Below the pieces are notes generated by a model. It worked only from the letters and a program-made list of their open reading frames with translations, did not search any database and had not been told where the DNA came from. 64,000 bases of DNA from an uncultured Christensenella sp. (GTDB taxonomy: Bacteria; Bacillota; Clostridia; Christensenellales; UBA1242): the NCBI GenBank assembly GCA_949290565.1, contig CASESH010000004.1, positions 9,877-73,876 on the forward strand, read 5' to 3'. Made by a program: the position numbers and the translations under genes. Positions 17,514-58,847 of this stretch are shown here, in pieces; position 1 is the stretch's first letter, and each line of letters opens with the position of its first letter.

Positions 17514-17543
17514 TTGACATTATATTATAAAATAAAATATAAT
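17514..17543 (+). promoter_or_regulatory. Candidate sigma-A promoter for the giant-gene pair
   Basis: Perfect TTGACA (17514-17519), an 18-nt spacer, then perfect TATAAT (17538-17543). It lies about 70 nt upstream of ATG 17615, within the 219-nt AT-rich intergenic region after spoIIID. Confidence 0.45.
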
Positions 17544-17614: not shown

Positions 17615-17680
17615 ATGAAAAAATTTATTCTTTTTTTATCAGTTTTTATGATAACATTAGCTACTCTTTTAGTAGGGTGT
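17615..17680 (+). other. Lipoprotein signal peptide of giant protein 1 (lipobox L-V-G-C, Cys22)
   Basis: MKKFILFLSVFMITLATLLVG|C has a positively charged N-region, a hydrophobic core and a lipobox. The Cys codon is at 17678-17680. Confidence 0.8.
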
Positions 17681-20600
17681 GCTAAGGATAAGTATGGGGA
17701 TTTAAAAATAACGGTTACTTCTGTAATTAGTTCAGATGGAGATAGATTATCTCCTAATGAAGAAGATGGTTTTTACTATGTTGAGGTAGGACAAACATTT
17801 ACAATTTCGTGTGATGTTTCATCTTCTACGCCGATTACTAAATATTTGAATTTTGTTAGTGAAAATTCAAGTGTTTTACACTTTGAAAAAACTGCTGAAA
17901 ATTCAAGGAGTGCGGTTTTCACGGCTAACGCTTATACAGTTGATGAGCCGGTTGGTATAAAGATAAGTTCTAAGGAAACATTGACAAATGCTATTACATT
18001 AAATTTTATGATTGTTGCTCCTGTTACTGAAATTACTACTCCTGATAATTTAGTACTAGATTCAAAAAATCCTTTAAATATAAAAGAAAATGTTGTTTTT
18101 AAAAGTAGTTATTTACAAAATAATTCTTTACAAGTCAATAATTCTGAAAAGAAACTTACATACACTTTAAATTCAATTATTGTAAATAATCAAACTTATT
18201 CCTTAGTTTTGCGTGATGATAATTGGTATGACATAATTGGATTTGATGGGGCAACAGTTTTCCCAAATGGTAAAGAGAATGCTTTTACTATTCAAAACGA
18301 CACTTTAATAGTTGCTGATGATGTTTATGGCAATCTCTTATTAGATGTGAAATCTTATAGATATGTTGAAAATATTGAAGAAACTTTTGATGATAGTTTG
18401 ACTGAAATAGATAAAAATAATCTTATTCAAGCAAATAATAAGTTAATTAATAAGAATGTTTCAATAAATATTTTACAACCTCTTAAAATTACTGATTTTA
18501 CTATTTCTTCTGGGCAAATTTCATTTGAAAATATTGGGCAAGATGGTTTAGAAAAAATTAAACTCACATCTATTTTGTACGATAATAGGTCAACTGACAG
18601 TTATAATGTTTCAGGTACAAATTACAATTATAACCTAGAAACGCTTAATATTTTTATTAGTAATTTAGATAAAGATTTTTATACAATTAAGTTTTTTGAT
18701 ATTGATGGAAATCAAATTAAAGAAAATTCCACAGGAGTCTTAAAATTATCTGAAAATAATCCTACACAACTTAATGCAAATAAAGTTGGTACGGAATATG
18801 TTGATATAGTTGTAAGTTATAATACGGCAAATAATATTTCATATTCATTTAGTGAATTGTATAAAGAATATTTGCAAGATAATGGTCTCCAATTAGAGGA
18901 TAATTTAAATAGATTGCAATTTAATGTACAGTCTCTTGCAAATAACATTGAATTGTATATTGACGATAGTTTAACTAGTGTTGATTCAAATGGTGAAGTA
19001 GAAATTTTTGATAAATATGCTGAAACTAAAAATTTAGGTACAAAGTTTGAAATTAAATTTTCAAACATTACAGGTGTTGATAAAGAAAATAAAAAAGTAA
19101 AGGTATATTTGGAAAGTTCAAATGTATTAGATTTGACAAAATATTTGGAAATTTATGATGCTTCAAATGGTTCAACTATTAGCAGAATTACTATTGAAAG
19201 TGAAGTTACAGATGGTAAAACTTATTATTATTTCATAAGAGATTTGGATTTGAATCAGTCTGTGTTCTATATGAAAGCGACTGATGCTGATATTTTAAAT
19301 TCATTTAATATTAGAGTAGAAAATTTATTACAAACTAATATTTTAGATAGAAATAATGAATCAATTTTAAACAATTTAACTAATGCCGAAGACTCTTTTA
19401 GTATTGTTGTTAAAAAGGGAGTTTCCATAGTTGAGGCCAAAATTGTTAATGACCAAAATTTCTATAATATTGCCACTAATAAAGACGCTGGTCAAGATGA
19501 AAATGAACTGTTTTATAGTAAGTTAGTTCTTGATTTGTCTAATAATTCAACCTTAGTTGCTCTTATGTTTGATTATGGTTTGGAGGGAGAATTAAATCTT
19601 TCAAGTTATAATTCAAGTGCTATTAAGATTGAAAAAGTTGACAATGCAAATATTTATTTTAGCGAAAATGCTACTGCTTCTAATTTGTCAATTTCTGCTG
19701 TCTACAAAATTACAGGTTTAAAAGAAATTACTAATTCAAGAGTAACCTTTACTGCGGATAATGGTTATTCTATCAGTTTTATTGTTGATGTTGTAAAACA
19801 AGTTAAACAAGTTAACTACAATTTTTATGAATATTATGATGGTTCAATAACACAAAATTTATATGATGAAGAAAATTATGTCAGTATTAAAAAGGATCAA
19901 TCATTTAATTTTAACTTTATTCCTTCTACTTTAAATGTAACTGAAAGTGCAAGTTCCGGAATTATTAATTATAGTTATTCTGTTGAAAATGAGGAGATTG
20001 CTTATGTTGCTGATAATTCAATTGGTAAAATTACTGCAATAAGTGAAGGGATTTCTACTGTTTCATTATATGTAGAATATTATTCATTTAATTTAGTTAA
20101 TGGTTATAATCAGTGGACAAAAACAGCATTTACAGAATCTTTTGATTTGGAGGTCTTTGTTCCTGCAAAAGACATAAATGTCAATCAAAATACAATAACT
20201 TCTTTTAACTATAATGATTTGCCAAGTGAATATTCTTCAAATTCTCAAATTCAAATTAGCGTTAACATAGATAACAATGCTACAATTTCTAATTTGGAAA
20301 GATATGCTGATAAAATTTCTTTTAGGTTTAAGGACCAAGAAAATTTCTTAAATACTGTTAAAGAAAATAACGAAATTATTGCAAACACAGTTTTAAAAAG
20401 CGACCAGGAAAGTTTAGTTACTTATGTTTATGTTACTGTTGATGAATTTGGTATTGAACATAATTTTGAGTGTAAAATTGAGATTACTAGACCGGTTAAA
20501 ATAAATGAAATTGATTTGAGAATTATTGATGGATTTAATAAACAGGTTAAAATTGATGAAACTAACAATAATGTTGATGGAACTATTAGAGTTGGTAAAG

Positions 20601-23600
20601 ATGAGATTTTAAACGCTATTACTTTGATAAATCCAGAAAATCCTTTAATTGATGAATTTGTTGTTACTATTTATGACGAGTTGATTATTCCTGATGGGGC
20701 CGATTATGATATAATAGAGTTTAACTCAAAAAATGATAATTTAAGGTTTAATTTTAACGCTGATGAGCAAATTGCTGGTGAAGATGGAATCTTTTATGTA
20801 ATTGTAAATGCAAAAGATAGCCTTGAAATTTTCTATGATAGTGACAATCAACCTTATTATGAATTTACAAAGTCTTATGTTTTAAGAGTAATTATTGAAG
20901 ATGGTATAAAAAATTCATATGGTATTTCAAATCAAGAAGAACTTATCGCAATTAATCAAGACCCATCTAAAAATTATATTCTTGAAAATGATATTGTTCT
21001 TAGTGGAGATTTTACTCCTATTCAAAATTTTACAGGTGTTTTTAACGGAAATGGTTTTACTATTTCAAATTTAAATATTAGTTCAACTTCTGCTCATTTA
21101 ATGGACGATATTAATCAAACATATAATGTAGGTTTATTTGCTTCATTAAACAATAAGGCTGATACATATGGTGTTATATATGATTTGAATTTGCAAGTTA
21201 ATAATATTAATTTAACTTCAAATATAAATGCTTTGCAAGTAAATGTTGGTGGATTAGTCGGTAATAATAATGGCTTAATTATTAATAGTTCGGTCAATAT
21301 TAAAAATATTTATGTTAACCTACCAAATGCACAAGTAAATGTTGGTGGATTGGTTGGTTTAAATACAAATAATATTTTTAATTTTGCTTTTGATTCTCTT
21401 TATAATTATGAAACTGATGCCGATTTAATTAGTAAAGAATTTGTGATTTTAAATAATTCTAAGATTAATAATTTAATCTTGGGAAACACCTTATCAGATT
21501 CATCTATTGAGAATGCTATCAGCAAAAAATATGTTAAGGGAAATATTGCTGTTTATGATAGTTTGGCAAGCAGTGCTAATATAGGTGGTATTGTAGGTAG
21601 AAATGACTTTGTAGTTAATGGCTTTTATGGACTTTATGCTAGATATACTTCTACTAACAATAATTATATAGTTACTTACCAAAGTCAATATGTGGATAGT
21701 GATGTTTTAATTAATGTAAACAATGGAGAACTTGTAAATGAGAATTCAACTGTTGGTGGAATTGCAGGTTTGAATAATAAAAATTTGTTTAATCTTTCAT
21801 CTCAGGGTAAGATTGGTAATTTTGATTTTAATACTAATACTTTGGCTTCATCTACCTATAAAAACGTTGGTGGAATTGTTGGTTCTACCCTTGGTAATAT
21901 TCAAAATGTTTTATCTAGCGTTTATGTTAGGGGGCAAGAAAATATCGGTGGTATTGCTGGAAAAGTTGTTGGAAGTTCAAGTTTAGAAACAGTTCTTAAT
22001 AAGAGTAAAGTTGAGTCCTATGATTGTTCAAATGATTTAAGCAATACAATTATTGTTGGTAAAAACAATGTTGGCGGTATAGCAGGTTTTTCTTCATATG
22101 GTTATTTAACAGAAAGCTATTTCTATGGTTATTCAGATAAATTTGACACAAGTTACATAAATAATGGAGATATTTTTGTTGTTAATCAAGATGGCAATGA
22201 ATATGCTGGTGGACTCATTGGTTTTGCAGAACAGAGTAGTATTAACAATTCTTTTGCAATAGCAAATATTAAATCTATTGTTGATAGTTTAAATATTAGA
22301 GGTCTTTCTGGTAGCAGTGTAAAGGCTGGAAATGATGTTTTCTATTTTGGAGTTGTCAATATTAGTGGCAAAAATGATGTAGAAAATATTTTGGGTGCTT
22401 TAAGTTGCGATTATTACTTTGTATTTGATTATAATGATAGTTTTGATAACTTCGTTTTAGTAAAGTCTTATGGAGATACAACAAACGATATTGAAAATGC
22501 AAATATTACTTTTGAATATTTAGATGGCGACAATCTTGTATCTATTTATAAGTATAGTGATATTTTAAGAGATATGCCTGTTGATATTGTTGTTAGTGGA
22601 AATGGCTCTGGTGTCGAAAACGCTAATAATGAGATTGTTTTAGAGTTTAAAACGGGTGATATTAAAAATAATTTCTACGCTTATCAAATTAGCCAAGGTG
22701 AAGAAATTGTAAATGTTTTGTTAGTAAATTTAATCGAGAAAAATTCAATAATGAATATTGGCGATTTGTTTAATATTTCTTCTACGCCAAACTCGATTAG
22801 TCTAAATTTAATAGTTGAAAGTTCAAATAATAAAATTGTTTCTGTTAATGATGATGGTAGTTTGACCTTTAAAAACTATGGTGAAGTTATTTTAACTTTT
22901 ACTGTTAAAGAAAATTTACTTGTTTCTTCGCAGGTTAAAGTTATTATTAACGAAAGTTTTGACAATTTAATGTTGTCAAGTAATCATAATTTCGCAAATT
23001 CTTATTTTGATTCAACTGAGTCTAATGTTAGCAAGGTTAGAACAGGTTTTGAATTCAATATTATAAGCCAACTTTCAAAAAATGTTGGGGGAACTACTTT
23101 TGAAATTGAAAATGCTAATTTCTATGATATTGATTTTAATATAAGTTATAAATCTGATGCTATTGGAACTTATTCTGAGGCTGTTTTAGGTAGAGATTAT
23201 GAAATCGTAAATCAATATAATAATGTTCTTGTTGCAAAATTTATTGTAAATGGTTATTTCAAATTTGACGTTTCTATTTCTTTCCAAGATGAGGATGGAA
23301 ATATTTATAGAATTAAGGATAATTCTTGGGTATTCTATCTATTATCTTTTAGTGGTGCAGTAGATATTTCTTTTGCAGAATCTGAAATTTGGATAAAGAC
23401 AAATGAAACTTATGAGTCTTTAACTGTTAACCTTGGTGTAGATAATGGGGCAGAAAGACCTGAATTAACTATTCAATTACAACTTCCTTCAAATGAGAAA
23501 ATTATTTTAAATGCTACTGTTGCAGATGAAGTTTATACTTTTAATCATAATAATTCTCCATTTATTATTACTGTTTCAAATTTAAATAATTCTATTGAAA

Positions 23601-41518: not shown

Positions 41519-41572
41519 AAGGAATTTGGGTGGATTCCTTAAAATGGTGGAAAATAAAAAGGGTATTGAAAA

Positions 41573-41641
41573 ATGAAGAAAATTATAAATTTTATTTTAT
41601 TTATTTCTTTGTCTATTTTAACTTTTGTTTTTGTAGGCTGT
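41573..41641 (+). other. Lipoprotein signal peptide of giant protein 2 (lipobox F-V-G-C, Cys23)
   Basis: MKKIINFILFISLSILTFVFVG|C. The Cys codon TGT is at 41639-41641. Confidence 0.8.
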
Positions 41642-50600: not shown

Positions 50601-53600
50601 TGGAGACTTTTAGTCAACAAAGGTATATTGGAAAAGTAAAAAACTATTCTGCTAATGAACTAAGATTTTATTCTTCAAATGACTACAATCTTGTAATTGG
50701 TACTCCTTCTCAAATTGGAGTTGGACAAAATGCAATAACTAGAGTTAATTATTATGCTGACCAGTCCCAACAAGATTTAGTTTTTACAACTCATACTAGT
50801 GATTACTTTAAAACTATTACATTTACTTTCTATTCTAGAAATAATTTTGAAGAATTATCTATTGTTTGCGATATAAAATTTGATGAAGAAAATCAGAAGA
50901 ATTATTTGTCAGCCAGGAACGCTGAGTATGGGAATGAAGTTAAGAAAATTCTTGATGTGATGGTTGAAGAAAATGGCGTCATTACAAATGTGGATTCTAA
51001 TTTTAGAGCAAATGATACCATAGTAATTTCATTTAATCAGGATAAAATGTTAATTGAAAACATTAATTATAAGGAATTGTTAAGTGCTTCATATAATTAT
51101 GCTAATTATATTCCTAATATTTCAAATTTACCTGGAAGTAGAACAAATCCTGAGATAATTTATGATTTGACTTCTTTTGAAAGTAAATTATCTTCAAATA
51201 CCGAAGGTAAATTTTATAGATTAGTTAGCGATATTGATTTGGAAAAAAAGTTTGTTTCTACAATTGGGACGAGTTTTAAAGGAGTTTTACAGGGCAACTA
51301 TATGGAAATAGATAACTTATCTATACCATATTTAAGTAATGTTGTAACAGATAATGTTGATAAACAATCCTTTGGTCTTTTTGCTGAAATTTCGGTTGCA
51401 AATGAAAGGTCTTTTAATACTGTAATTTCAAACTTACAACTTAACATAAATGAAGTGATTTCATCTATTCATAACTATGTTGGCGGACTTGCCGGAAAGA
51501 TAGATTCAAGACAGGAAAATGGAATAAGTAATTCTACTCAAAGAATATTCTTAAACAACATTACCATTAATGGTGTTGAAGGTAGTAATAAAATTGTTCA
51601 GGGTAGAAATGCAGTTGGCGGACTCGCTGGTATTGCAATAGGGAATGTTATTATAAAAAATATAACCTCAAATATTAATGTAAATTCAAGTTATGATGAG
51701 TCAAAAAATTCCGTTAAAAATATGTTGTACATTTCCTATTCAATGCAGACAAACGACCAAGTTCAAGAACAAGAAAAATCTCAAAATTACAAAAATATTT
51801 CTTACGCCGGTGGCGTAATTGGTATTTTTGATGCAGTCAAGGTTGTTGACCCTGCAACTCAAAGAAATTATAATGCTTCTAACATTTATGTAATGGGAAA
51901 TAATAAATATACCGGAAATATTGTTGGTATGGCTTTTGGACTTGTTGGTTCTCAGTCAATAGTTAATTATGTTAATGTTGAGGTTTATAGTAGTGATTCT
52001 ACTAAGATTAATGCTTCAAGTTATGGTGGTGGAATAATTGGGGAAAATAGAGGAGTAGTTATATCATCATCAGTATTCTATGCTGATGAGAATAATGAAA
52101 ATAACAATATTGCCATTTCAACATATCAAAGTTACAACTTATTTAATTCCCAGTACAACTCAATGGCTATTGGTGGTTTAGTTGGTTTAAATAATGGCGG
52201 TATCATATACAATTCAATTTCAAGCATTTTTGTTAGAAATATTAACTCTACTGTTGCAGGTGGTGCAGTTGGTAGAATGATTGAAGGTGTTTTACAAAAT
52301 GTTATTGCTACCGGTTCTGTTATAGGTAAATCTATTATTGGTGGTTTAATTGGGACATTGAATGATATTGATATTTTAGTTGATAACAACTATAATTCTT
52401 TATCTCTTATAAATATTAATGATTTAATTTATGAAGAAATAACAGGAAGTAGTCTAGGTTTGAAGACAAAGGCTTTAATTGCAAATTGTGTTGCTGGAAA
52501 TAATTGGCTTTCCTATGATTATAATTATTATGAAAATTTGTTAGTTATAGACAAAACTGCTGTAAGTGGATTCATAGGCTTAATTTCGATGTATTCATCA
52601 ACAGATGATTTTAATGAAAGTAGTTTAGATAAAATTGAATTTAGGTCACATAGTTACTATTCTAATACCCTATATTCAAATTATAATAGTTATACAAACG
52701 CTGATAAATATTTAAAGGCAAGTTATGTTTCTAAGGATTTAGATTATGTAAATACTAATATGATATACAAGCCTCTTATATTGAAAGATAGTTCGGGTTT
52801 ACAAACTGTATTTCCTTATTCAACTAGTGAATTTTATTATGATAGTATTTCAACTAATGTTTATTATGAAATAAAGGGTGAAAAGAATCCGAATTATAAA
52901 ATTTCTACTACTGTTGAGGGTGATTATTATGCTAGAAAAATTTATTCTATAAAAGTTGTAAATCCTGTATCATTACAAAATCAAGATAGTTTTTATAAAT
53001 TAATTGATATGTCTCTATGGAATACTGAATATCAATATAGAGATTATACTTGGTTTATAAATAGATTTGGTAAGATTTACAAAAATATAGAAGGTCAATA
53101 TGTTGAAATTAAAAACGAAAAAGAGTTTAATGATTTCTATGTAGCAAATGATGATATTTATCCAAATGTTTACTTCATTTCAAACATTAATCTAGATAAA
53201 CTTTCTTTTGAACAGGAATATTTATATTCTACAAACGATATTATCTTGTATGGTGAAAGCGATGAAGTTTTAATTGAATTTGATACACTTGAACAACTAA
53301 AAGCACAAACAAATGTTTATCTTAATGGAATTAATTTTGAGATAGATTTCACTAATGCAAGTGCATCCGATGAAAGTTTTGTTGAAGATAGTGTTTGTGA
53401 ATATGTTTTTGACATTAAGTTTAATTTACCAAATTTAGGATATGTAAGCAATATTAGTATCAAAGTAAGAAGAAATGTTGGCGTGGGTTATGAATATTAC
53501 ACCATTGATAGCGTGAAACTTACAAATGTTTATGAAAATATTGATGAAATTTCTTCTATTTCAATGGATGCCCAAGATGATGGTAATGTGATAAATCAAT

Positions 53601-56600
53601 ATTATGGATTTGTTTCAAATACTGATAATATTTATACTGAATTTGTATTTAAAATTTTAACAAAAAAATTAATTTACTCTGCTTATAATAACAATTATTG
53701 GATTTTTGGTGATAATTTCTTGTCAAGTAGTTCTATGACAATGGATAAATATCCGGTGAATATTGAACTTGCTGAAAATTATATTTGGACTGATTTTAGA
53801 AGTAATAAAAATTTGGTGGATGATGATATTGATGATGATGGAGAATTAGAAAAAGTATATTCTATTACTAGTGCCGAAGATTTATCTCAACTAGCATATC
53901 TTGTTAATGAAACAGATTGGATAAATAGTGACATTTTAAATGGTACAATAAATATAGAAGACGTTGTTATTACTTTAAATGCAGACATTGATTTAAGTGG
54001 AAAATATTGGGTGCCTATTGGAACCGAAGATAGTCCATTTAGATACAAATTTGAAGGAAATGGCTATACAATAAAATATATTTCAGTAAATAAAAATTCT
54101 TTTGCTTCTAATGGAAATGTAAATTATGCCGGATTATTTGGAGTAATTCAAGATGCTGAGATTTGTAACCTAACAATTCAGGGCGGAGAAATTAATTGGT
54201 TAAATGCTGGTGGACTTGTTGGTAAAGCAATAGATAGTAATATTTACAATATTATTAATAGAAATAATGTTAATGGTATTGCTATTGCAGGGGGAATAAT
54301 TGGAGAAAGTCAAAATTCTAGTATTTTTAATTGTATAAATTATGCTGATGTTTCAATCTCCCAACAAATTGGTATAAATAGTTCATATATAGGTGGTTTA
54401 GTTGGTAAGGCCAATATGGGTAATTTTGGTTACAGTGAGGGGTTAGATGGCGAACAAACTAATTTTGTAAATACAAATTATGGGAATTTAAATATTAGTA
54501 ATAATTTAAATAACTATGTGGTAAATGATTTATATGATATTTATGCTGGCGGTTTGATTGGGTTAGCAACTGATGTCAAAGTTGGAATTTTAGATTCGGC
54601 AATAGAAACAAATAACAACACTAATAATTATCATACTAACTATGGTTCTATAAATGTAAATTCTAATAGCCATACTTTATATGTTGGTGGAGTAATAGGT
54701 TATTTCGCTAACCAAAATAATTTAGGTGAAAAGATTTCTCTTTATAAATTAAGAAATAATGGAGATATTAATGTAGTTTATTCTAATATTGATAGTGATG
54801 TTTCTTCTGAGAATGTTATTGATAATGTTGTATCTATTTCAGCAATAGGTGGTGTGCTTGGTGGGAGTGAAGTAGATTTTAATAAACTAGCAAATTTAGG
54901 TAATATCAATCTTGATATGATTACTATTAGTGATGGAATTTTAGGAGTTGGTGGAGTTGCTGGTAAGATAAATAATTTAAAAGGGCAGTTGTTGACTTTT
55001 ACTGAAAACTACAATAGTGCTAATGTTAATGTCTCTTCAACGGGAAATACAACTTTTGGTGTTGGAGGTATTATTGGAAGTATTGATTTAAGTTTGTACG
55101 ATAATTCACAAGTTTTCGAACAAAATATAATTGCTTATGTTAAGGATAGTTATAATATAGGAAATATTACTTCAAATAATAACAGTCAAACTTCGTTAGG
55201 CGGAATTATTGGTAATGTTTTAACTGATGATGAATATTCTAAAACTATAATTCAAAATACTTTAAATATTGGTTATGCTACCATTTACAATATTGATAGT
55301 AAACAAGAAGCAAACTCTCTTGGAGCAATTATTGGTAATGACAATTCTATACTTTTATCAAATCCATATGCTAATGAAAATCCAGAAAATCCAGGAGATT
55401 ATGTAAGTAAAGACTTAAATAACTTTTATTTAAGAGGTTCAGCATACAGTGGGAATGTTCTTTATACAGCACTATGTGCCTTTAATAATGGTAGATATGA
55501 ATTGGTTGAAGATATTTCAACTTTTGCAATGACTAGAATTTCAGACAACTTAAAAAATTTAACTACTTTTATTTCATCCGTTAGTAGTGAAGATGGAGAA
55601 GTTGAATATGTTTGGGATTTTGACAATGTTTGGACTCAAATGTATGATACTTGGTATCCAACACTAATTGATAATAATTCGACCTCTTATTGGGAAGATA
55701 AATTAGAGCAAGTTTATTCTTCTACTAATTATTATCAAATTAATAGTGCTATGGAACTTTCATATATAGCAAACCAAATTAATACAGGTAAATTAGATTC
55801 TTATGGAAAAGTTTTTGAGTTAACTAACTATATTGACTTGTCAAATAACTATTGGACTCCTATTGGAAATGAAAAATATCCTTTCGAGGGAACTTTCAAT
55901 GGAAACAATTATACTATAAAAAATTTAACCATTGATGGCAGTATAATGTCTAATAATATTTATGGTGGTTTGTTTGGTTATGTAGAAAACGCTGTAATTC
56001 AAAATATAAATTTAGTTTCTCCTATAATTAAAAATGTTTCATATGCTGGTGCTCTTGCTTATAGCGTTGTAAATAGTAAAATTTCTTATGTTTATACTGA
56101 AAAGGGTGAAAGTAATAATTCTATTATTCAAGGCAATTTAGGTGCTGGTGGATTAATTTACTTACTCAAAGATTCTAATTATACTGTTAATAATTTAGTT
56201 GTTAATAAGGGGCTATATTTATCTTATAATAACGTTCCTGTTAGTAGAAATACTTCTATTGATACAACTTGTATTGTTGGTGGATTAGTTGGTAGTTTAG
56301 AGAATTCACTTATAAGCAACAGTTATAATAGTTATGAAGCAGTTGTGACTATAAAAAATGTTTCAGGTAATGTTACCCTTGAAGGTGTTACAATTGCTGG
56401 TTCAATAGATCAATCTAGTGATATTGAAAATGTATTCAATATTTCTACAATGGTTAATCAACAAACCGAAAGTGGTGAAACTAATAATATTACTCCTGCG
56501 ATTTTTGAAATGAAAGAGAACGATAAGGGGGTAAAACAATTAAAAATTAAAGAAACAAATTACGAACCAATTTTTGATAATTTATTAGATTCTACACAAG

Positions 56601-58507
56601 GAATACCAGAAGATTTGTGGACTAAGGAATATTCATTAAATAATGATGTTAATTCAAAATACCCTACTATTCGTGGATTAGGCAATGATTGGAAAAATAC
56701 TGAAAGTGAGGCTCTTGTAAGATTTACTGTGGGCAATGATTTTACAAAAGTAAGAAATGAAATTCAAGATTATGTATCTAACACATATCTTCTTGTCGAG
56801 GATGAACAAGGTCAAGTTGTTCAAAGTAAGATTAAAACTTATTTAAGTTTCGCATATGAAAATTTACCTTATAACAAAGATGATGCTTTGAGCAAAGTTA
56901 AAATAAATACTATTTATTTAATAAGTACAGCAGAAGAACTTGCTTGGCTTGGCAACAATGTTAATAATGGAAATATTAATACTTCTAATTGTGAGTTTAT
57001 TTTGCTTAACGATATTGACTTGTCAGGTAAGTATTGGACTCCGATTGGTCTTAGTAGAATTAATTCGTTTAAAGGTATATTTAACTTTAATGGACATGTC
57101 ATCAGTGGTTTGATTATAGATTCTAGTCAATACAATTATGCAGGTTTATTTGGATATACTTCAAATGCTTATATTATTAACGGATACTTAGATGGCGCTT
57201 ATATAATGTCTAGAAATACAAATTCTGATTTGTATGTGGGTGGAATAGTTGGATATTCATCTCAGACAGATTTTAGAAATATTTATGTTTCGACTTCAAT
57301 TTATGCTTATTCACAAAGAAATGTTTATGTTGGTGGACTTGCAGGTTATGTGTTAGGTAATGGTAATACTATTAGTAACATTAATATTAGTAACTATAAG
57401 GGAATTGACTTGGGTAATTATACTGATGAAATTGTCGAGGTTGACTCTAATGGGACAATTATAAGTAGTCAAATGCAATCAACTGATATAAGCATTGGGG
57501 CTTTCAGTGATGGAGGGGAAGTTTATTTAGGTGGTGCTATTGGTTATGTTGTTGGAACTCAAAATCAAACAGGTAATAGTGACTTGTTAGAATATTTGAC
57601 AACTGACATTGATATTGCAGCAGTATCCCTATCTAACGCAAACAATGTTTATGCAGGAGGAGTTGTTGGATATGTTGATAATTTAGTTAACATTAATGCT
57701 TCAAAAACTCTTGGTGTGATAAAAACTTTCTCTGCAAAATTTGATATAATTGGAGGTATTGTTGGATACTTAAATTTAGGAAGTATTAATAATTGTTCAT
57801 TTGAGGGTTATGTCGAATCAAGACAAAGACAAAGTAGTGATTCTCAAAGTATTAGGTCTTATTTAGGAGGTATTGTTGGAGTAACTGAACAAGGTCTAAT
57901 AAATTATAGTAATTCAAGTCTTGGTAGTACAATTCCTAATATTTTAACTACTGATATTGATTTTGGTGCAATTGTGGGTTATGTAATTAATAGTAATACT
58001 ATTAATAGTTATTCAATTAATGTTTATCTTGATTCAAGCAATGGATTTAGCAGTCCTCTTGGAAAATATGACAATTCTATTGTAGATGAAACTTTATTAA
58101 AGAGTAAGTTTACAACTGAAAATACAGTTATTACAGAAGAAAATGGATTTGAAACGTTGTATTGGAATAATAAAAATCTTTTATCAAAGAAGACTTTTGT
58201 AATTGGTTGTGGAAAGCAATCATTCATTGCTAGCATTAATGGTAAGTTAGAAGAATTATTACCATCGGATTCAGACCCTAATCCGGGCTTACTTGTCAGT
58301 GATTTAAAAGAAATGATTTTATCGTGTGAAAGTATTTCAGGTCAAAGTAAGAAAAGTAAGATAGGAATTGCTACCGTAGTAAGTGATGGCGGAATTTTGA
58401 GATATGAATATGTAGAAAAAGAATTAACTCAAAATACAAATATTTTACTTTCATCATTTATCGATTTAGATGTTGACTTAATTACTTGCTATATCACACT
58501 ATTGTAA
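41573..58507 (+). CDS. Giant surface lipoprotein (5,644 aa), paralogous in architecture to the upstream giant: Ig-like regions plus six GLUG-type beta-helix modules
   Basis: Uninterrupted 16,935-nt ORF starting 54 nt after the previous stop. Lipobox FVFVGC. Big_2-like segments are present. There are six N-cap/rung/C-cap modules and about 30 canonical GG[ILV][VAI]G rungs by eye. Confidence 0.9.
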   Translation: MKKIINFILFISLSILTFVFVGCNNRYNNVYVYLAFSYSQNEVVEVLDNGNTRVKTSTSTFDIRPDGSYIVYIQDGKESKVDLKVTFENEPKDFTYKANVSSSVEIVNVSNSNLKIENGVIYSLSFYKEGETQITALNYDSGKSNSIFVEVVNVESNFNFINSNIALAKIDGLSINFNNEIDISSDLVTFDFGSFNDVNDFVLFTNELIENGLNYNTQTNTLTLLNSNILNLDNIVVRATYINPIGDNIVKYVTIDIIPTIENIEVYNGSSYTDAKNSLNRIDSSLDFVVTISGNNYDYRDIVLKVESNGENIVFDFVEDTLFPFEVLQPNKEVVYESEDNVVVDNYQNAKYTYVFYRLKSIKSTTTDEYVNNLYTLKISCNYQDYEVPTYPIYKEIQTKCYALIKNFWINDNGNSNVYLTFDKNNFSNFLNSYSDYFLNENVYTRTSDELNGKSFKIDVKDNSVLEENTSFTIEFYKDNSILVNPTYYFDIHYTDNEGNVLKINNDNELSTKIFNKGTTLYLKTTYDNVDSTNNVFYMIVRATKPDNISRQAVTVVKLNVVEGLESIDNFNYSYFSYKQDGNGDYEVGEDDQFIVEENISQNISFNNFIAQEEIELNYELHKNKYSIVNFSYTPQQASLENVKVFSSNDEIFEVDDSSLESGKIGIIVRSSGKADLIIKIDSILYEYVLPINIYTPVQEFNLYLMEDSYEDGVGQIVTEEFNTINAIVQNMKVFNLQTYIFPYNANNFETQYNLYRVEGENLINIGSYSLNSNQNYEIYDNDFYLNCISKSFRFLNDENVDRKYIIEVILINLNGSQIKRQIEISSYNRIESLNIFTNKVEINNPNNIYYLDKVQSIDDIINNSIDDPSVFNISVQDFGNPTFSFEDFATLEIWMQNIKLSEYSLQDGRLNQVYSIENNCISALSLDSFNNAYWFRLNENYSLQGASIVIKVYINEFNEIIQSQATISVSDLVEVSSIKSNSDEIIHLKQGINTSQTINLTVNNEEAYNKSILTKDLFMMNIDGNYYYVLEDESSNNYINSLITNNNINYTFNVEIAGLFFGQIVTIFMPEDKINSLNDYQDWNNYSYTQVDITQDDFISGLFYYNDNDKFVLEDEFNVNAQYFVRSVDFDKIINLFKETFFIQFVISDGENIPFYVTSFSDLQEINTNSNLANKNFILAKDISLQDINWQPIGNYYVVQLDQTSFEPDVYYIKQDSNYVIANEYDSEEVYYSYGFNGSLSGKYSILSADGSVIENYYKITNIKSNLTINNTYVGLFTNLGQDCVISDLILEFDAFQLSDKQLTRDLIFGGIAAVNYGKLENVEIKFNELRLTSNYNITFGGVVGLNYGYILNVNSNKSHILDGSIYVTSNNADASVIVGGYVGRNYGTIQGIYTDENDIQFSFVDQTSNLNLNINVETKNIGDNPTDKQMIGGVAGFSTGIIKGMVVEGNIVASNTNNVGGLVGFLTTSNQDEQNLNYSIQNSYSSLYVTGYSYVGGAIGRVEGFELNNVNIYNISSENYVTLYQSRTYIKGNNFVGGLIGYSNYAKIEYSYVVSYYDCNLLDLNSNKESVNYDIVGNEYVSSFIAYSLNNIINKSASYINIFGKAYTSAFISFNSDSQIDSIFYIGSIYCSTIQGEESFNNNSYYVIYDIDKNSISQSYSKDVVGDFWAVNDDINNGLPYLVFKDSKKILFATGKIKVDAFVKEVELSYTNYIKVNDHTLFLFYNYDSTNEYTIDVLDLLNTIHIQDFIDIDVNILTDKTSRFNLSSTNDKVISILDNGYLKINGIGRVTLTISSKLNSNYSVSLEVNVIYGISDIELYADTMLLDYEKEQEVLILKKSVNQNLDLDISYNRNIQNNDYNLQPNNNQIGVRFIIKNDDNLKNILNQVSQTSGSVDINSLLKMNADNLWILDQDYYYVDITNFNLYINPTLSFEGELSIYYIPYIVESYNNKNFLTLISSFENPKYFNIQIIDGAKEIIFENSVGSTVQINQIQNFVLTVTIMTDYEDEEIVTNLEILKAQDENFGCREGNLVKNYNVDGNIISVSKTYTFWYQDKVNSILEAKEYKISFWSNSRFSETTKKELVLRIEGYDKLDYISAQIYSDGESDFPHEQSINKIVYNNGKSAILALEVYPYFVDYSKIRISYTTSSAMSLSITQLKYNIQGTGDKFTINTDSGAYIDQNNNLIIEKSSAQDTYQFNTNGIYSYSKSYFFALLVSSSVPNNTVYNLKFEFINRLGQIIKEQSISFSTMTKSLLNLSFNQELKQNNSLYVNSNNEYYYLPFNTKHEIFVDTIVKYDYINWEVSSTDYDLNAVEKEALTPVFENNKWYVNVMNFGTSAVKTNTDLIGKTINLTATIDDSYPVDPCTITFVVTLFTITDISVLYEEDGYLLLENNTTNPLKVNVDVEYDLGLTSSSNNWYTTWYNTNKDNKEDSLYNNIVNAGYNVEQSILDYISFIEEKIAKTNYRPIESGNKQSGIFIYKSNLDGNDEYLTAGKLYNNGAFEVENYNNFIALSGLKDNVNTNLKLLVYLSYSVNSDNATSSGLANVENYNVTFSQNRNPFVFEKDFTVNFYNSINYQNSIPVSNAEEFLGMADANNDESYRLICDIYLENYSPINANMYNFDGNGFTIYITSFDTVLEEDETLVLGLFNNISEDTLISNLNVYYTRNVNIQNNTITNETNIKPVGDEIKVNINTPNTIYFGGMARINNGIITNCKLSGNINVSVLENYYANVNVGGFVYSNSETGYITYSKVEGFNITCYGSSGGFVAENRGKIVSCSFSQSSLKNLSVGNVGAFVLNNYAEIYESFTEGSRLESDVDIRNKGQGISSNGGKVGGFAYYNNSIINDCYSNISLSSSLDTAGFVYLDSASSVISRCYSICYNEVSLTSSGGYSSNAFPFVGPASEFLPKVVVNGNLINCYYLIGNESDWRSQIFYDSQTSEVATTNPNKKATGLSFDDFATHKSFINYDLSLVYSTDLYPNTISFNYVDGYTWVIIEGKPVLASSLVETFSQQRYIGKVKNYSANELRFYSSNDYNLVIGTPSQIGVGQNAITRVNYYADQSQQDLVFTTHTSDYFKTITFTFYSRNNFEELSIVCDIKFDEENQKNYLSARNAEYGNEVKKILDVMVEENGVITNVDSNFRANDTIVISFNQDKMLIENINYKELLSASYNYANYIPNISNLPGSRTNPEIIYDLTSFESKLSSNTEGKFYRLVSDIDLEKKFVSTIGTSFKGVLQGNYMEIDNLSIPYLSNVVTDNVDKQSFGLFAEISVANERSFNTVISNLQLNINEVISSIHNYVGGLAGKIDSRQENGISNSTQRIFLNNITINGVEGSNKIVQGRNAVGGLAGIAIGNVIIKNITSNINVNSSYDESKNSVKNMLYISYSMQTNDQVQEQEKSQNYKNISYAGGVIGIFDAVKVVDPATQRNYNASNIYVMGNNKYTGNIVGMAFGLVGSQSIVNYVNVEVYSSDSTKINASSYGGGIIGENRGVVISSSVFYADENNENNNIAISTYQSYNLFNSQYNSMAIGGLVGLNNGGIIYNSISSIFVRNINSTVAGGAVGRMIEGVLQNVIATGSVIGKSIIGGLIGTLNDIDILVDNNYNSLSLININDLIYEEITGSSLGLKTKALIANCVAGNNWLSYDYNYYENLLVIDKTAVSGFIGLISMYSSTDDFNESSLDKIEFRSHSYYSNTLYSNYNSYTNADKYLKASYVSKDLDYVNTNMIYKPLILKDSSGLQTVFPYSTSEFYYDSISTNVYYEIKGEKNPNYKISTTVEGDYYARKIYSIKVVNPVSLQNQDSFYKLIDMSLWNTEYQYRDYTWFINRFGKIYKNIEGQYVEIKNEKEFNDFYVANDDIYPNVYFISNINLDKLSFEQEYLYSTNDIILYGESDEVLIEFDTLEQLKAQTNVYLNGINFEIDFTNASASDESFVEDSVCEYVFDIKFNLPNLGYVSNISIKVRRNVGVGYEYYTIDSVKLTNVYENIDEISSISMDAQDDGNVINQYYGFVSNTDNIYTEFVFKILTKKLIYSAYNNNYWIFGDNFLSSSSMTMDKYPVNIELAENYIWTDFRSNKNLVDDDIDDDGELEKVYSITSAEDLSQLAYLVNETDWINSDILNGTINIEDVVITLNADIDLSGKYWVPIGTEDSPFRYKFEGNGYTIKYISVNKNSFASNGNVNYAGLFGVIQDAEICNLTIQGGEINWLNAGGLVGKAIDSNIYNIINRNNVNGIAIAGGIIGESQNSSIFNCINYADVSISQQIGINSSYIGGLVGKANMGNFGYSEGLDGEQTNFVNTNYGNLNISNNLNNYVVNDLYDIYAGGLIGLATDVKVGILDSAIETNNNTNNYHTNYGSINVNSNSHTLYVGGVIGYFANQNNLGEKISLYKLRNNGDINVVYSNIDSDVSSENVIDNVVSISAIGGVLGGSEVDFNKLANLGNINLDMITISDGILGVGGVAGKINNLKGQLLTFTENYNSANVNVSSTGNTTFGVGGIIGSIDLSLYDNSQVFEQNIIAYVKDSYNIGNITSNNNSQTSLGGIIGNVLTDDEYSKTIIQNTLNIGYATIYNIDSKQEANSLGAIIGNDNSILLSNPYANENPENPGDYVSKDLNNFYLRGSAYSGNVLYTALCAFNNGRYELVEDISTFAMTRISDNLKNLTTFISSVSSEDGEVEYVWDFDNVWTQMYDTWYPTLIDNNSTSYWEDKLEQVYSSTNYYQINSAMELSYIANQINTGKLDSYGKVFELTNYIDLSNNYWTPIGNEKYPFEGTFNGNNYTIKNLTIDGSIMSNNIYGGLFGYVENAVIQNINLVSPIIKNVSYAGALAYSVVNSKISYVYTEKGESNNSIIQGNLGAGGLIYLLKDSNYTVNNLVVNKGLYLSYNNVPVSRNTSIDTTCIVGGLVGSLENSLISNSYNSYEAVVTIKNVSGNVTLEGVTIAGSIDQSSDIENVFNISTMVNQQTESGETNNITPAIFEMKENDKGVKQLKIKETNYEPIFDNLLDSTQGIPEDLWTKEYSLNNDVNSKYPTIRGLGNDWKNTESEALVRFTVGNDFTKVRNEIQDYVSNTYLLVEDEQGQVVQSKIKTYLSFAYENLPYNKDDALSKVKINTIYLISTAEELAWLGNNVNNGNINTSNCEFILLNDIDLSGKYWTPIGLSRINSFKGIFNFNGHVISGLIIDSSQYNYAGLFGYTSNAYIINGYLDGAYIMSRNTNSDLYVGGIVGYSSQTDFRNIYVSTSIYAYSQRNVYVGGLAGYVLGNGNTISNINISNYKGIDLGNYTDEIVEVDSNGTIISSQMQSTDISIGAFSDGGEVYLGGAIGYVVGTQNQTGNSDLLEYLTTDIDIAAVSLSNANNVYAGGVVGYVDNLVNINASKTLGVIKTFSAKFDIIGGIVGYLNLGSINNCSFEGYVESRQRQSSDSQSIRSYLGGIVGVTEQGLINYSNSSLGSTIPNILTTDIDFGAIVGYVINSNTINSYSINVYLDSSNGFSSPLGKYDNSIVDETLLKSKFTTENTVITEENGFETLYWNNKNLLSKKTFVIGCGKQSFIASINGKLEELLPSDSDPNPGLLVSDLKEMILSCESISGQSKKSKIGIATVVSDGGILRYEYVEKELTQNTNILLSSFIDLDVDLITCYITLL
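45041..46635 (+). repeat. Giant 2 beta-helix module 2a
   Basis: N-cap YVTSFSDLQEINTNSNLANKNFILAKDISLQDINWQPIGN. The rungs are IFGGIAAVNYG, TFGGVVGLNYG, IVGGYVGRNYG, MIGGVAGFSTG, NVGGLVGFLTT, YVGGAIGRVEG and FVGGLIGYSNY. C-cap FWAVNDDINNGLPYLVF. Confidence 0.6.
46865..47013 (+). other. Example Big_2-like Ig domain segment in a giant 2 spacer
   Basis: RFNLSSTNDKVISILDNGYLKINGIGRVTLTISSKLNSNYSVSLEVNVIY fits the Big_2 pattern. Confidence 0.5.
49322..50600 (+). repeat. Giant 2 beta-helix module 2b (variant GFV rungs, counterpart of 1b)
   Basis: N-cap IPVSNAEEFLGMADANNDESYRLICDIYLENYSPINANMYNFDGNGFTIYI. The rungs are YFGGMARINNGIITNC, VGGFVYSNSETGYITYS, SGGFVAENRGKIVSCSF, VGAFVLNNYAEIYESF, VGGFAYYNNSIINDCY and TAGFVYLDSASSVISRCY. 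C-cap GYTWVIIEGKPVLA. Confidence 0.6.
51151..52600 (+). repeat. Giant 2 beta-helix module 2c
   Basis: N-cap PEIIYDLTSFESKLSSNTEGKFYRLVSDIDLEKKFVSTIGTSFKGVLQGNYMEIDNLSI. The rungs are YVGGLAGKIDS, AVGGLAGIAIG, YAGGVIGIFDA, YGGGIIGENRG, AIGGLVGLNNG, VAGGAVGRMIE and IIGGLIGTLND. Confidence 0.55.
53861..55680 (+). repeat. Giant 2 beta-helix module 2d
   Basis: N-cap SITSAEDLSQLAYLVNE...ITLNADIDLSGKYWVPIGTEDSPFRYKFEGNGYTIKYISV. The rungs run NAGGLVGKAID, IAGGIIGESQN, YIGGLVGKANM, YAGGLIGLATD, YVGGVIGYFAN and so on. C-cap VWDFDNVWTQMYDTWYPTLI. Confidence 0.6.
55735..56685 (+). repeat. Giant 2 beta-helix module 2e (short)
   Basis: N-cap YQINSAMELSYIANQINTGKLDSYGKVFELTNYIDLSNNYWTPIGNEKYPFEGTFNGNNYTIKNLTI. 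The rungs are IYGGLFGYVEN, GAGGLIYLLKD and IVGGLVGSLEN. C-cap LWTKEYSLNNDVNSKYPTI. Confidence 0.6.
56911..58200 (+). repeat. Giant 2 beta-helix module 2f
   Basis: N-cap IYLISTAEELAWLGNNVNNGNINTSNCEFILLNDIDLSGKYWTPIGLSRINSFKGIFNFNGHVISGLII. The rungs are YVGGIVGYSSQ, YVGGLAGYVLG, YLGGAIGYVVG, YAGGVVGYVDN, IIGGIVGYLNL and YLGGIVGVTEQ. The C-cap-like sequence is FETLYWNNKNLL. Confidence 0.6.
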
Positions 58508-58511
58508 AATA

Positions 58512-58546
58512 AAAGAGTTCAGTATTTTAACTGAACTCTTTTTTTA
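58512..58546 (+). terminator. Rho-independent terminator closing the giant-gene pair
   Basis: It begins 7 nt after the stop at 58507. Perfect 9-bp stem agagttcag (58514-58522) / ctgaactct (58531-58539) with an 8-nt loop, followed by T7 (58540-58546). Confidence 0.75.
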
Positions 58547-58818
58547 ATTTAATTTTTAGATAAAAAAACAAGAAAAACTACAATAATTTTCATTTTAAAT
58601 TTTTTATAAAATAATAAAATATAGTTTAAAAATTTACTTTGTTTTATATTGGAGTTTAAAAATTCTTTTTGTCTATTTAAACTTTATCTTTTTTGTAGAA
58701 AAATGACTTTATTTAAATTATTTTTTTATTATTTTTAAATGTCAATGATATTAGAAAATATCTATTAATTTATATTTTATAAACTTATGCAAATTTACTA
58801 AATTTTTACAAAAATCTA

Positions 58819-58847
58819 TTGACTAAAATTTTTTGTTGTGCTAATAT
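58819..58847 (+). promoter_or_regulatory. Candidate sigma-A promoter for rpoBC (extended -10)
   Basis: TTGACT (58819-58824), a 17-nt spacer, then TGcTAATAT (58839-58847). It would give a leader of about 205 nt before rpoB ATG 59059. Confidence 0.45.

Follow-up and report, generated by a model that had tools for sequence, protein, structure and literature searches.

Two very long genes, here called A and B, stand in tandem on the forward strand between spoIIID and rpoB in the window (the whole stretch of DNA that was analysed, 64,000 nt). Both reading frames contain terminal stops only and together take up 40,893 of the 64,000 nt (63.9%), just as the original prediction of two giant unbroken frames filling 64% of the window had stated. 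The G+C content across the region is about 28%. Directly upstream of A lie spoIIID (17117-17395) and the gene for an M23 peptidase, in an adjacency that is conserved. The features of the locus are as follows.

17514..17543, + strand: candidate sigma-70-type promoter, TTGACA-18 nt-TATAAT, 12/12 matches, about 70 nt 5' of the A start codon
17615..41518, + strand: gene A, 7,967 aa, predicted giant lipoprotein; mature form 868 kDa, pI 4.4
17615..17680, + strand: A signal peptide and lipobox, MKKFILFLSVFMITLATLLVG followed by Cys22 (LLVG/C); matches PS00013
41519..41572, + strand: A-B spacer, 54 nt, with a 7-bp hairpin and the weak Shine-Dalgarno site of B; A and B are in the same frame
41573..58507, + strand: gene B, 5,644 aa, predicted giant lipoprotein; mature form 631 kDa, pI 4.3
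41573..41641, + strand: B signal peptide and lipobox, …LTFVFVG followed by Cys23; matches PS00013
58511..58542, + strand: intrinsic terminator, 13-bp stem, 6-nt loop and T-run, 3 nt past the B stop; 0.0 expected in shuffles

Integrity of the reading frames and signals for expression

Given the base composition of the region, 9.0% of random codons are stops and the mean open run is 11 codons. The chance of meeting no stop is about 1e-328 over the 7,967 codons of A and about 1e-232 over the 5,644 codons of B, and the longest open run in the remaining five frames is 151 codons. A is exactly 7,967 aa long in three independent assemblies, which differ by 12-14 substitutions and zero indels, while B has 5,644, 5,646 or 5,637 aa across three assemblies, with in-frame indels only. 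Independent contigs match 20.6 kb of the window (11.5 kb of left flank and the first 9.1 kb of A) at 99.8-99.9% without gaps. Within-species SNPs give a dN/dS of about 0.26-0.39, from very small counts.

Mis-assembly of a repeat region, or decay of the genes, was also considered, and it can point to the origin of the sequences in short-read metagenome assemblies and to one relative (P0097, 4,289 aa) that ends oddly within a scaffold. Against it stand the vanishing chances of accidentally open frames given above, the concordant lengths in three assemblies, and full-length collinear orthologues that are open for >7,600 codons despite 35% identity. Collapse of repeats is also unlikely, because near-identical DNA repeats and meaningful tandem arrays are absent; the rungs described below are 60-74% identical over about 57 nt. 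An artefact or pseudogene has effectively been refuted already, and we attach next to no probability to it. A and B are real genes that have been kept open.

An alternative genetic code was rejected, since the neighbouring genes are all clean in table 11 with TGG as the only Trp codon. A mobile element or phage origin was rejected on account of the housekeeping flanks in conserved synteny, and recent tandem amplification because DNA repeats are at most 74% identical. Rfam gave zero matches in the whole window, and no tRNAs were found in it. The only hint of habitat comes from record names with 'TONG22-1…METAG' and from rumen-type neighbours, which suggest an animal gut.

The promoter candidate starts about 120 nt past the end of spoIIID and is the sole perfect match; promoter-like sites taken together show no enrichment in DNA this rich in AT. 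No terminator was found in the 54-nt spacer between A and B. The perfect promoter ahead of A, the strong terminator behind B and the lack of a terminator in between suggest a single operon. Each gene also has the Shine-Dalgarno-like site that had been claimed for it, AGGTGA at 7 nt ahead of the ATG of A and the weaker AAGGGT at 8 nt ahead of that of B.

Lipoprotein signal peptides had been proposed for both proteins, and both N-termini match PROSITE PS00013 (K/R within the first 7 residues, then {DERK}6-[LIVMFWSTAG]2-[LIVMFYSTAGCQ]-[AGS]-C, with the Cys at position 15-35) at Cys22 in A and Cys23 in B. Cys22 is kept in 8 of the 11 relatives of A; a ninth, whose called start lies further upstream, has this lipobox at Cys58, and one of the 11 is an internal fragment. 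A conserved xxDKYADL motif follows the lipobox Cys in A and its orthologues. Neither protein contains LPXTG, HExxH, any other catalytic motif or a second TM segment, which fits an N-terminally tethered fibre. Neither lgt nor lspA lies in the 64-kb window. Lipidation and surface exposure of A and B are predictions from their N-terminal sequences.

Domain layout of A and B

The regions of the two proteins are listed below, with N-caps scored by a purpose-built HMM (cap HMM) and rungs of the GLUG type by Pfam.

17681..20914, + strand: A aa 23-1100, beta-sandwich (Ig-like) array according to AF2 and Foldseek, proposed membrane-proximal stalk
20918..22414, + strand: A module M1, aa 1102-1600, N-cap and GLUG rungs, right-handed beta-helix in the AF2 model; cap HMM E 1e-22, GLUG 24.4 bits
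22775..25234, + strand: A spacer 1, aa 1721-2540, non-GLUG; no Pfam match at E <= 5; 38% identity to orthologues with 2% gaps
25244..28294, + strand: A modules M2 (aa 2544-3040, 'AGFV'-type rungs) and M3 (aa 3063-3560); cap HMM E 4e-20 at 2544, weak at 3063
28841..32341, + strand: A module M4 (aa 3743-4330), then a degenerate module or spacer (aa 4331-4909); cap HMM E 1e-19; GLUG 44.9 bits in the M4 tile, weak GLUG in 4331-4909
32342..40294, + strand: A aa 4910-7560, GLUG-type rungs in a nearly unbroken run of about 2,650 aa, interrupted by a few inserts; 39 HMM rungs
40295..41515, + strand: A C-terminal region, aa 7561-7967, acidic linker and non-GLUG tail; no Pfam match, no LPXTG or TM
41642..45043, + strand: B N-terminal region, aa 24-1157; no Pfam match, no PDB sequence match, no homology to the A N-terminal profile
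45044..46672, + strand: module B1 of B (aa 1158-1700), which has a C-cap, W…LPYL, around aa 1671; cap HMM E 1e-7, GLUG 16.3 bits
49322..52492, + strand: B module B2, aa 2584-3010, rungs of 'GGFV' type, cap HMM E 2e-23; B module B3, aa 3196-3640, cap HMM E 2e-20, GLUG 14.5 bits
53855..58012, + strand: B modules B4 (aa 4095-4705), B5 (aa 4721-5040) and B6 (aa 5114-5480); cap HMM E 4e-25, 5e-27 and 9e-27; GLUG 9-19 bits

There are 58 copies of the pattern GG[ILV][VAI]G in A and 24 in B, and a purpose-built HMM finds about 59 and about 27 rungs respectively. The corresponding HMM for N-caps places them at aa 1158, 2584, 3196, 4095, 4721 and 5114 in B and at 1102, 2544, 3743 and 4910 in A, with a very weak one at 3063; a degenerate one can be seen by eye near 4500. 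Six or more modules per protein had been predicted, which is fair for B with its six N-caps and holds only approximately for A, where four are clear, one is very weak and one is degenerate.

Assignment of the modules to the Pfam GLUG family (PF07581, gathering cut-off 20.5 bits) is borne out directly for A, where scores of 44.9, 24.4 and 24.4 bits were obtained in three different tiles or modules. B stays below the cut-off, with a best score of 19.0 bits (B6), others of 9-16 and no match in B2, yet when five B modules are compared by HHalign with 17 GLUG-positive proteins, the N-cap and the rungs next to it align with a probability of 99.3% (E 1.6e-20). A profile built from the modules and their database relatives matches the IgA1 proteases 7uvl_P and 3n6z_A in the PDB at about 1e-19. 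PDB sequence searches with M1, the B N-terminus and a B spacer returned nothing meaningful.

One A module was modelled by AF2 (aa 1090-1720), with a pLDDT of 85-98 in the rungs, a pTM of 0.69 and a mean pLDDT of 64.5. The Foldseek matches of this M1 model are nearly all right-handed beta-helices, with probabilities of 0.97-1.0 for IgA1 proteases, although all E-values are >0.01. The top match is the L. reuteri SRRP, whose binding region (5NXK) is a beta-solenoid. The first capped module of A thus models, with partial confidence, as a right-handed beta-helix nearest to the IgA1-protease beta-helix domain, and the HMM and structure prediction agree here with the beta-helix content that had been expected. 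Membership of the capped modules in the GLUG/IgA1-protease beta-helix superfamily is supported by the Pfam matches in A, the HHalign result for B, the profile matches to IgA1 proteases and the AF2 and Foldseek results.

An Ig-like character had also been proposed, and it stands for A aa 23-1100 through structure modelling only. AF2 with a 12-sequence alignment gives an all-beta string of beads (mean pLDDT 70), and Foldseek with this model returns 228 matches with E no higher than 0.001, the foremost being arrays of Ig, cadherin and S-layer type, with E down to 2e-18. The model resembles titin, cadherins, Nup210 and the Ig arrays of Bacillus S-layers. Big_2 (PF02368) and the other Pfam Ig families have no match in 20 non-GLUG segments of A and B, even at E <= 5, where Pfam returned nothing above noise. 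Of the 13,611 residues in A and B, about 60% have no Pfam match, and the remainder that does match is the GLUG motif, which no more than four papers in the literature searched mention.

From the alignment of its modules (about 27% identity), B is a distant paralogue of A. B1 and M1 are 28% identical (BLASTP, E 2e-12), and A 3126-3499 can be aligned with B 3238-3585. The clearest N-caps (…DIDLSGKYW.PIG…F.G.F.GNG.TI) are those of B4-B6, which have C-caps W…YPTL. The claim that both proteins have the same architecture applies to the series of modules and not to the N-terminus of B, which has no detectable homology to that of A (HHalign of the A N-terminal profile, probability 0.3%). No BLASTP match was obtained when all the non-GLUG segments of the two proteins were compared with one another.

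Orthologues, synteny and rates of change

An exhaustive search among 1.84 billion representatives found only 11 relatives of the A N-terminal region. No relative was found in a GTDB genome scan with the A N-terminus, and with Mfd the scan gave only chance 8-mer matches of 33-45% identity that carry no taxonomic information. The sole match of a JGI metagenome scan with a 4-sequence alignment was an unrelated GLUG module on a sediment contig. Orthologues of A with 7,689 and 7,808 aa in other species are collinear over 7,479-7,639 aa at 35-37% identity, and one orthologue cluster contains six full-length variants (7,805-7,817 aa) from separate assemblies. Orthologues of B (5,503-5,709 aa) lie upstream of rpoB in four species. 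In species with 78-89% identical RpoB, A orthologues follow spoIIID and B orthologues precede rpoB, while the tandem A-B junction itself has been observed only in the source species. The order of spoIIID then A is seen in a species with 57% identical Mfd. An outgroup with 68% identical RpoB has no giant gene at the locus.

RpoB identities of 89, 87 and 78% correspond to 42, 36 and about 30% for B, a contrast of the kind that is typical of exposed proteins; A and B evolve 3-5 times faster in sequence than the neighbouring housekeeping genes. Conservation of A declines towards the free C-terminus. Its best-conserved part is M2/M3 (aa 2540-3560), with 49-57% identity to orthologues, followed along aa 4910-7560 by a drop from 32% to 26%; the C-terminal region is least conserved, at 19% identity with 26% gaps. 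What is new here is the set of operon signals and the spoIIID/rpoB synteny of the pair.

Proposed role, rival readings and known systems

A and B are best read as N-terminally lipid-anchored, fast-evolving surface fibres, and as an unannotated family assembled from known domain types. We lean towards the view that they arose by an ancient duplication, are transcribed together and serve a monoderm Clostridia lineage as giant surface lipoproteins in the form of ligand-binding fibres. Transcription would start at the consensus promoter (17514-17543) and end at the terminator (58511-58542). Each protein would be exported by Sec, receive diacylglyceryl on Cys22 (A) or Cys23 (B) and be cleaved by signal peptidase II, and would then be tethered to the outside of the cytoplasmic membrane through the N-terminus only. 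The string of Ig-like beta-sandwiches near the membrane may act as a stalk through and past the wall. Distal to it would come the GLUG beta-helices, five to six separate right-handed modules with caps and with spacers between them, whose rigid lateral faces would bind ligands, with host or partner-cell glycans or proteins as candidates. The fastest-evolving part would be the free C-terminal end. If extended, such fibres may reach about 0.1-0.2 micrometres, and they could function as adhesins or as a coat scaffold. Binding by the modules is proposed by analogy with the sole solved GLUG-region beta-helix, that of IgA1 protease, which is non-catalytic and contacts its ligand, the IgA1 Fab, in this way (PMC7695701). 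An adhesion role has also been proposed for GLUG proteins of a gut archaeon (PMC9723798).

Adhesins are more often strain-variable. Strict core-genome synteny beside rpoB is unusual for them and fits a structural role at least as well, in which A and B would be the main blocks of an S-layer-like coat or spacer layer needed by every cell of the clade rather than ligand-specific adhesins. Size and core-genome position (spoIIID-rpoB) conserved across species with RpoB 78-89% identical, the perfect consensus promoter, the acidity of both proteins (pI 4.3-4.4, like many S-layer proteins) and the S-layer proteins EA1, Sap, SbsB and SbsC as best bacterial Foldseek matches of the A N-terminal model are all consistent with such a coat. 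These S-layer matches are generic, however, and rank alongside titin and cadherins; a domain for S-layer anchoring (SLH, CWB2 or another) was not found by Pfam, monomers of megadalton size are not known to form lattices, and orthologue identities of 19-40% speak against tight lattice contacts. We regard a structural coat as unlikely, though worth keeping in mind. The beta-helices could instead be serial catalytic lyase or hydrolase domains of tailspike, PL6 lyase or polygalacturonase type, in a machine that degrades polysaccharides, since Foldseek matches of M1 include phage tailspike depolymerases, a fucoidan lyase, PL6 alginate lyases, AlgE4 and polygalacturonases, and a GLUG domain is mentioned in connection with a study of Bacillus cellulosilyticus carbohydrases. 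Yet those matches have E > 0.01 and probabilities of 0.02-0.6, against 0.97-1.0 for the non-catalytic IgA1P beta-helix, CAZy-type Pfam families are absent from all tiles, and no carbohydrate-binding module was found. The rungs are rich in Gly, Ile, Val and Asn, no catalytic pattern of acidic or basic residues is conserved from module to module, and we judge an enzymatic role improbable.

The conserved adjacency of spoIIID and the M23 peptidase directly upstream might suggest fibres of the spore coat or exosporium, with the mother cell as a possible place of expression. However, a consensus promoter of sigma-70/sigma-A type serves A separately, 120 nt past spoIIID, a lipobox implies that the cell making the protein exports it across its own cytoplasmic membrane, and collagen-like or known coat domains were not found; a link with sporulation is very improbable. 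Returning to surface lipoproteins, a bolder version, which we consider speculative and unlikely, would make the pair an envelope structure that is essential and defines the clade, and not an accessory adhesin. As the largest lipoproteins predicted in bacteria (0.87 and 0.63 MDa), A and B would then form a dense coat of fibres about 0.1-0.2 micrometres long or an intercellular tether. Their place between spoIIID and rpoB would date back to the origin of a Christensenellales-like family, with a shared function for the central modules (A aa 2540-3560) and variable distal ends adapting to host or partner.

Genes of such size in bacteria are usually regarded as rare and particular to single strains, and their metagenome assemblies as hard to trust. 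The present pair assembles reproducibly, with length, order and position conserved across several species of a poorly referenced uncultured Clostridia clade. The locus alone opens no long-standing question. It does offer a natural set of 11-12 diverged GLUG beta-helix modules for structural and functional work, a pair of proteins that may be a major surface antigen or adhesin of these bacteria, and a test case of a monoderm cell that would export and anchor a 0.9 MDa protein by a single lipid.

Most bacterial proteins >5,000 aa are NRPS/PKS or surface proteins for attachment and recognition (PMC11573180). A and B fit the giant surface-protein class, with intact ORFs, a secretion signal, repetitive domains of extracellular type and no NRPS/PKS. 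The Gram-positive M26 IgA1 proteases (S. pneumoniae ZmpA/IgA1P, 6XJB; Gemella haemolysans, 7UVK/7UVL) have the GLUG repeat family (PF07581/PF05342 region) in common with them and, as their N-terminal domain, a right-handed beta-helix like that modelled for M1, with a best Foldseek probability of 0.97-1.0. Only the beta-helix is shared, as no A or B tile has an M26 Pfam match, and the catalytic domain, HExxH, LPXTG anchor and G5 domains of these proteases are all missing from A and B. The proteases have a single small beta-helix of about 270 aa, whereas A and B have 5-6 modules each, plus the 2,650-aa run of rungs in A, would be anchored through a lipobox and are 4-6 times larger.

Also related are single-module GLUG proteins of about 1,000 aa from Clostridia and other MAGs (P0001-P0074), with the same N-cap (…EDL…L.NDI.LS….PI..F.G.FDGNG.TISN…GLF) and GGI[VA]G rungs and 25-39% identity to M1 (best E-value only 4.5e-13). 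They have one module each, and none is like A or B outside it. These relatives carry PF07581, some also PF05342 and one an SLH domain, as expected of surface proteins that associate with the wall.

The Ig arrays of Bacillus and Geobacillus S-layers (EA1 8OPR, Sap 6QX4, SbsB 4AQ1, SbsC 4UJ6) are matched by the model of A aa 23-1100 with E-values near 1e-10. A has no sequence similarity to them and no SLH anchor, and neither SLH nor CWB2 was found by Pfam in any A or B tile. The resemblance is generic, as the same model fits titin, cadherins and Nup210 equally well or better. S. aureus Ebh and the serine-rich repeat proteins are, like A and B, megadalton, acidic, modular and extended surface proteins. 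Unlike these giant Gram-positive fibres, A and B lack LPXTG, a C-terminal TM anchor, serine-rich repeats and an accessory-Sec signal; their repeats are ancient and diverged rather than near-identical tandem copies, and their genes are core and syntenic rather than strain-specific.

Authenticity of the two giant reading frames

Two adjacent genes, A and B, encode giant predicted lipoproteins and together fill 63.9% of the window, as the original prediction had stated; its description of the locus as a whole proved essentially right.

17615-41518, forward strand: gene A, a 7,967-aa open reading frame
41573-58507, forward strand: gene B, a 5,644-aa open reading frame

The G+C content of this region is ~28%. 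From base composition, stops are expected at 9.0% of random codons, and the chance of such frames being open by accident is ~1e-328 (A) and ~1e-232 (B). The other five frames are indeed closed, with open runs of at most 151 codons, and the Shine-Dalgarno-like sites reported for both genes are present, that of A being good (AGGTGA, 7-nt spacing) and that of B weaker.

The public protein collection contains both sequences exactly. A is represented there by three variants from three assemblies, all of 7,967 aa, with 12-14 substitutions and no indel, and B by proteins of 5,644, 5,646 and 5,637 aa with in-frame changes only. Independent contigs match 20.6 kb (the left 11.5 kb flank and the first 9.1 kb of A) ungapped at 99.8-99.9% identity, and no near-identical DNA repeats prone to assembly collapse were found. 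SNPs between strains lean towards purifying selection (dN/dS ~0.26-0.39, from tiny SNP counts).

We consider the strongest evidence for real reading frames to come from HMMER: when 1.84 billion representatives were searched exhaustively with A aa 23-1100, only 11 relatives turned up. Two are full-length, collinear orthologues of A, one of 7,689 aa (37% identity over 7,639 residues) and one of 7,808 aa (35% over 7,479 residues), and a third, P0097, is truncated (51% over 4,280 residues). One orthologue cluster comprises six variants, each from its own assembly and all full-length at 7,805-7,817 aa. With over half of the residues replaced and the frame still open across >7,600 codons, a pseudogene or chimera is impossible, and the claim that the giant frames are intact was thus upheld by the three assemblies, the ungapped contig matches and the orthologues.

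The closest A orthologue, P0097 (4,289 aa; positions 640-13509 of contig L031, ENA ERZ16268200 scaffold_3298), breaks off within its scaffold, with genes on the opposite strand coming next, probably owing to a scaffolding join or truncation. A word-indexed protein search with A-derived queries returned neither the 7,967-aa protein itself nor its orthologues, which the exhaustive search did find; indexed searches may systematically miss giant, compositionally biased proteins.

Domain architecture and variation

The PROSITE lipoprotein rule PS00013 matches both N-termini, at Cys22 of A (LLVG|C) and Cys23 of B (FVFVG|C), in agreement with the signal peptides originally proposed. No HExxH, LPXTG or hydrophobic segment beyond the signal peptide is present in A or B. 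The mature proteins (868 kDa for A, 631 kDa for B) are both acidic, with a pI of ~4.3-4.4.

The GLUG motif (PF07581, cut-off 20.5 bits) is the only Pfam match. It exceeds the threshold at three places in A (44.9, 24.4 and 24.4 bits) and stays below it in B, at 9-19 bits in five of the six modules. However, HHalign matched a profile of five B modules to one of 17 GLUG-positive proteins with a probability of 99.3%, and the alignment of A with B shows 27-28% identity (E 2e-12). The B modules are thus homologous to GLUG modules despite their sub-threshold scores; the predicted GLUG identity holds for A by threshold and for B through profile-profile homology. Rungs of the form GG[ILV][VAI]G number 58 in A and 24 in B. 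An HMM built from N-cap examples found six caps in B and four to six in A, so the proposed minimum of six modules per protein stands for B and is roughly right for A. After its caps A continues as ~2,650 aa of nearly unbroken rungs. Within A aa 5600-6200 (about 34412-36214) the long rung run is broken by helix-rich, Gly-poor inserts without a family match, for example around aa 5895-6100 (…LYTKLENELKDIYNRIETGIKEDIWPKLLEVW…).

Searched against the PDB, a profile of the modules and their database relatives hit two entries at about 1e-19, 7UVL (Gemella IgA1 protease) and 3N6Z ('putative immunoglobulin A1 protease'). When A aa 1090-1720 was modelled with AlphaFold2 (pTM 0.69), the rungs reached pLDDT 85-98, the loops were disordered and the C-terminal part was of low confidence. 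Right-handed beta-helix proteins make up nearly all of the model's Foldseek matches, every E-value being >0.01, with the IgA1 proteases of S. pneumoniae and G. haemolysans at the top probabilities (0.97-1.0).

Outside the modules (~60% of the sequence) Pfam gave no family even at E ≤ 5, and BLASTP found no similarity among these segments. The AlphaFold2 model of A aa 23-1100, built on a 12-sequence family alignment, is all-beta (mean pLDDT 70). Foldseek gave 228 matches to it at E ≤ 0.001, the leading ones being Nup210, titin, cadherins and four Bacillus S-layer proteins (EA1, Sap, SbsB and SbsC). As modelled, this region consists of Ig-like beta-sandwich domains strung one after another. The suggested Ig-like N-terminus of ~1,100 aa is therefore backed for A by fold matches and not by Pfam; the B N-terminus has no homology to that of A.

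Measured against its two full-length orthologues (7.7-7.8k aa), A is 31% identical in the N-terminal Ig array, peaks at 49-57% in modules M2-M3 (aa 2540-3560, window 25232-28294), which may form a functional core, and falls to 19% with 26% gaps in the C-terminal tail (aa 7561-7967, 40295-41515). This pattern, in which the core is conserved and the free end varies, fits an N-terminally tethered, exposed molecule. Strain variants of A differ by single scattered substitutions only. Those of B (P0079 and P0080) carry a 2-aa insertion, an alternative last 12 residues and two substitution clusters, suggesting local recombination or diversifying hotspots:

about 52874-52903: B substitution cluster, aa 3768-3777
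about 57995-58051: B substitution cluster, aa 5475-5493

Operon signals and gene order

Upstream of A: pth, mfd, 571-aa protein, LPG-synthase-like membrane protein, DUF1779-like protein, M23 peptidase, acyl carrier protein (ACP), spoIIID
Downstream of B: rpoB, rpoC

A perfect TTGACA-18-TATAAT promoter match lies ~70 nt upstream of A, the 54-nt A-B gap contains no terminator, and an intrinsic terminator with a 13-bp stem begins 3 nt past the B stop codon; from these signals the pair reads as a predicted bicistronic operon. A and B share one reading frame, separated by TAA and 18 codons (41516-41572). The gap holds a 7-bp hairpin (AAGGAAT-TTGGGTGG-ATTCCTT) which lacks a T-run and is therefore no terminator; it might serve in RNA processing or stability, or be left over from the duplication junction.

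Among the clusters, about 35 relatives of RpoB are 76-89% identical to it, one of them labelled 'MAG: Clostridia bacterium' (86%) and another 'MAG: Christensenellaceae bacterium' (78%), and the next tier follows at 68%. On this basis the host belongs to an uncultured Clostridia lineage, possibly Christensenellales. Four relatives (RpoB 89, 87, 86 and 78%) have a giant gene directly or almost directly upstream of rpoB (5,672, 5,709, 5,620 and 5,503 aa), and the three that were translated are collinear B orthologues (42%, 36% and ~30% identity). A species with Mfd 57% identical has pth-mfd-…-M23-ACP-spoIIID followed by an A orthologue (27%). In an outgroup (RpoB 68%) rpsL-rpsG-fusA precede rpoB, and the giant gene is absent there. 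Orthologues at matching positions and none in the outgroup thus mark the pair as a syntenic core locus of a single clade, conserved and evolving fast; the junction between A and B was seen only in this species.

Several neighbouring features were also observed. In the window rpoB is not preceded by rplJ-rplL; in this clade B takes that position (contigs L034-L036, L038 and L039 compared), and rpsL-rpsG-fusA lie downstream of rpoC. The 516-nt non-coding gap before rpoB (58543-59058) has no Rfam match. The 571-aa protein (12410-14125), with no Pfam domain beyond a sub-threshold SurA_N_3 hint, occupies the same place in a distant relative (L032, 42% identity), flanked there too by mfd and the LPG-synthase-like gene. 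Two adjoining Rce1-like CAAX-protease family membrane proteins (316 and 376 aa, 4-nt overlap) lie at 3252-5329.

Proposed function and comparison with known systems

The reading we favour, by a little over even chances, is a lipid-tethered Ig-like stalk bearing serial beta-helix binding modules and a variable tip. A and B would be exported by Sec and lipid-modified at Cys22 or Cys23, the N-terminus forming the tether; the stalk would carry a row of rigid, capped beta-helix modules presenting binding faces, and the chain would end in the variable distal tip. Taking ~4 nm for each Ig domain and 0.48 nm for each turn of the helix, we estimate a fibre of about 0.1-0.2 micrometres. The sole solved relative of the modules, the IgA1-protease beta-helix, contacts the IgA1 Fab and gates the active site (PMC7695701), and an adhesion role has been proposed for GLUG proteins that a gut archaeon has acquired (PMC9723798).

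An S-layer-like structural coat would suit the core-genome synteny and strong promoter match, but A and B are without anchoring or lattice domains, and we regard it as rather unlikely. Polysaccharide-active beta-helix enzymes arranged in series are still less probable, given that the fold matches are weak and no catalytic family was found. We give little credence to a sporulation-linked surface protein, and practically none to an artefact.

The preferred tethered fibre would resemble in function the giant surface adhesins and fibres, the second-largest class among bacterial proteins >5,000 aa (PMC11573180). By Pfam's own threshold A is a GLUG-motif protein, and B is one through profile-profile homology only. 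Neither is an M26 IgA1 protease, the catalytic domain having been looked for and found absent, and neither belongs to the SLH-anchored S-layer, LPXTG or serine-rich repeat proteins. They depart from known examples in having a lipobox as the sole predicted anchor of a megadalton protein, and in being an ancient tandem paralogue pair. Whereas GLUG relatives of ~1,000 aa have one capped module each, each chain of A and B has five to six separate GLUG beta-helices with caps. Giant bacterial genes are usually reported as strain-specific (summarised in PMC11573180); in contrast, A and B are strictly syntenic in a core genome.
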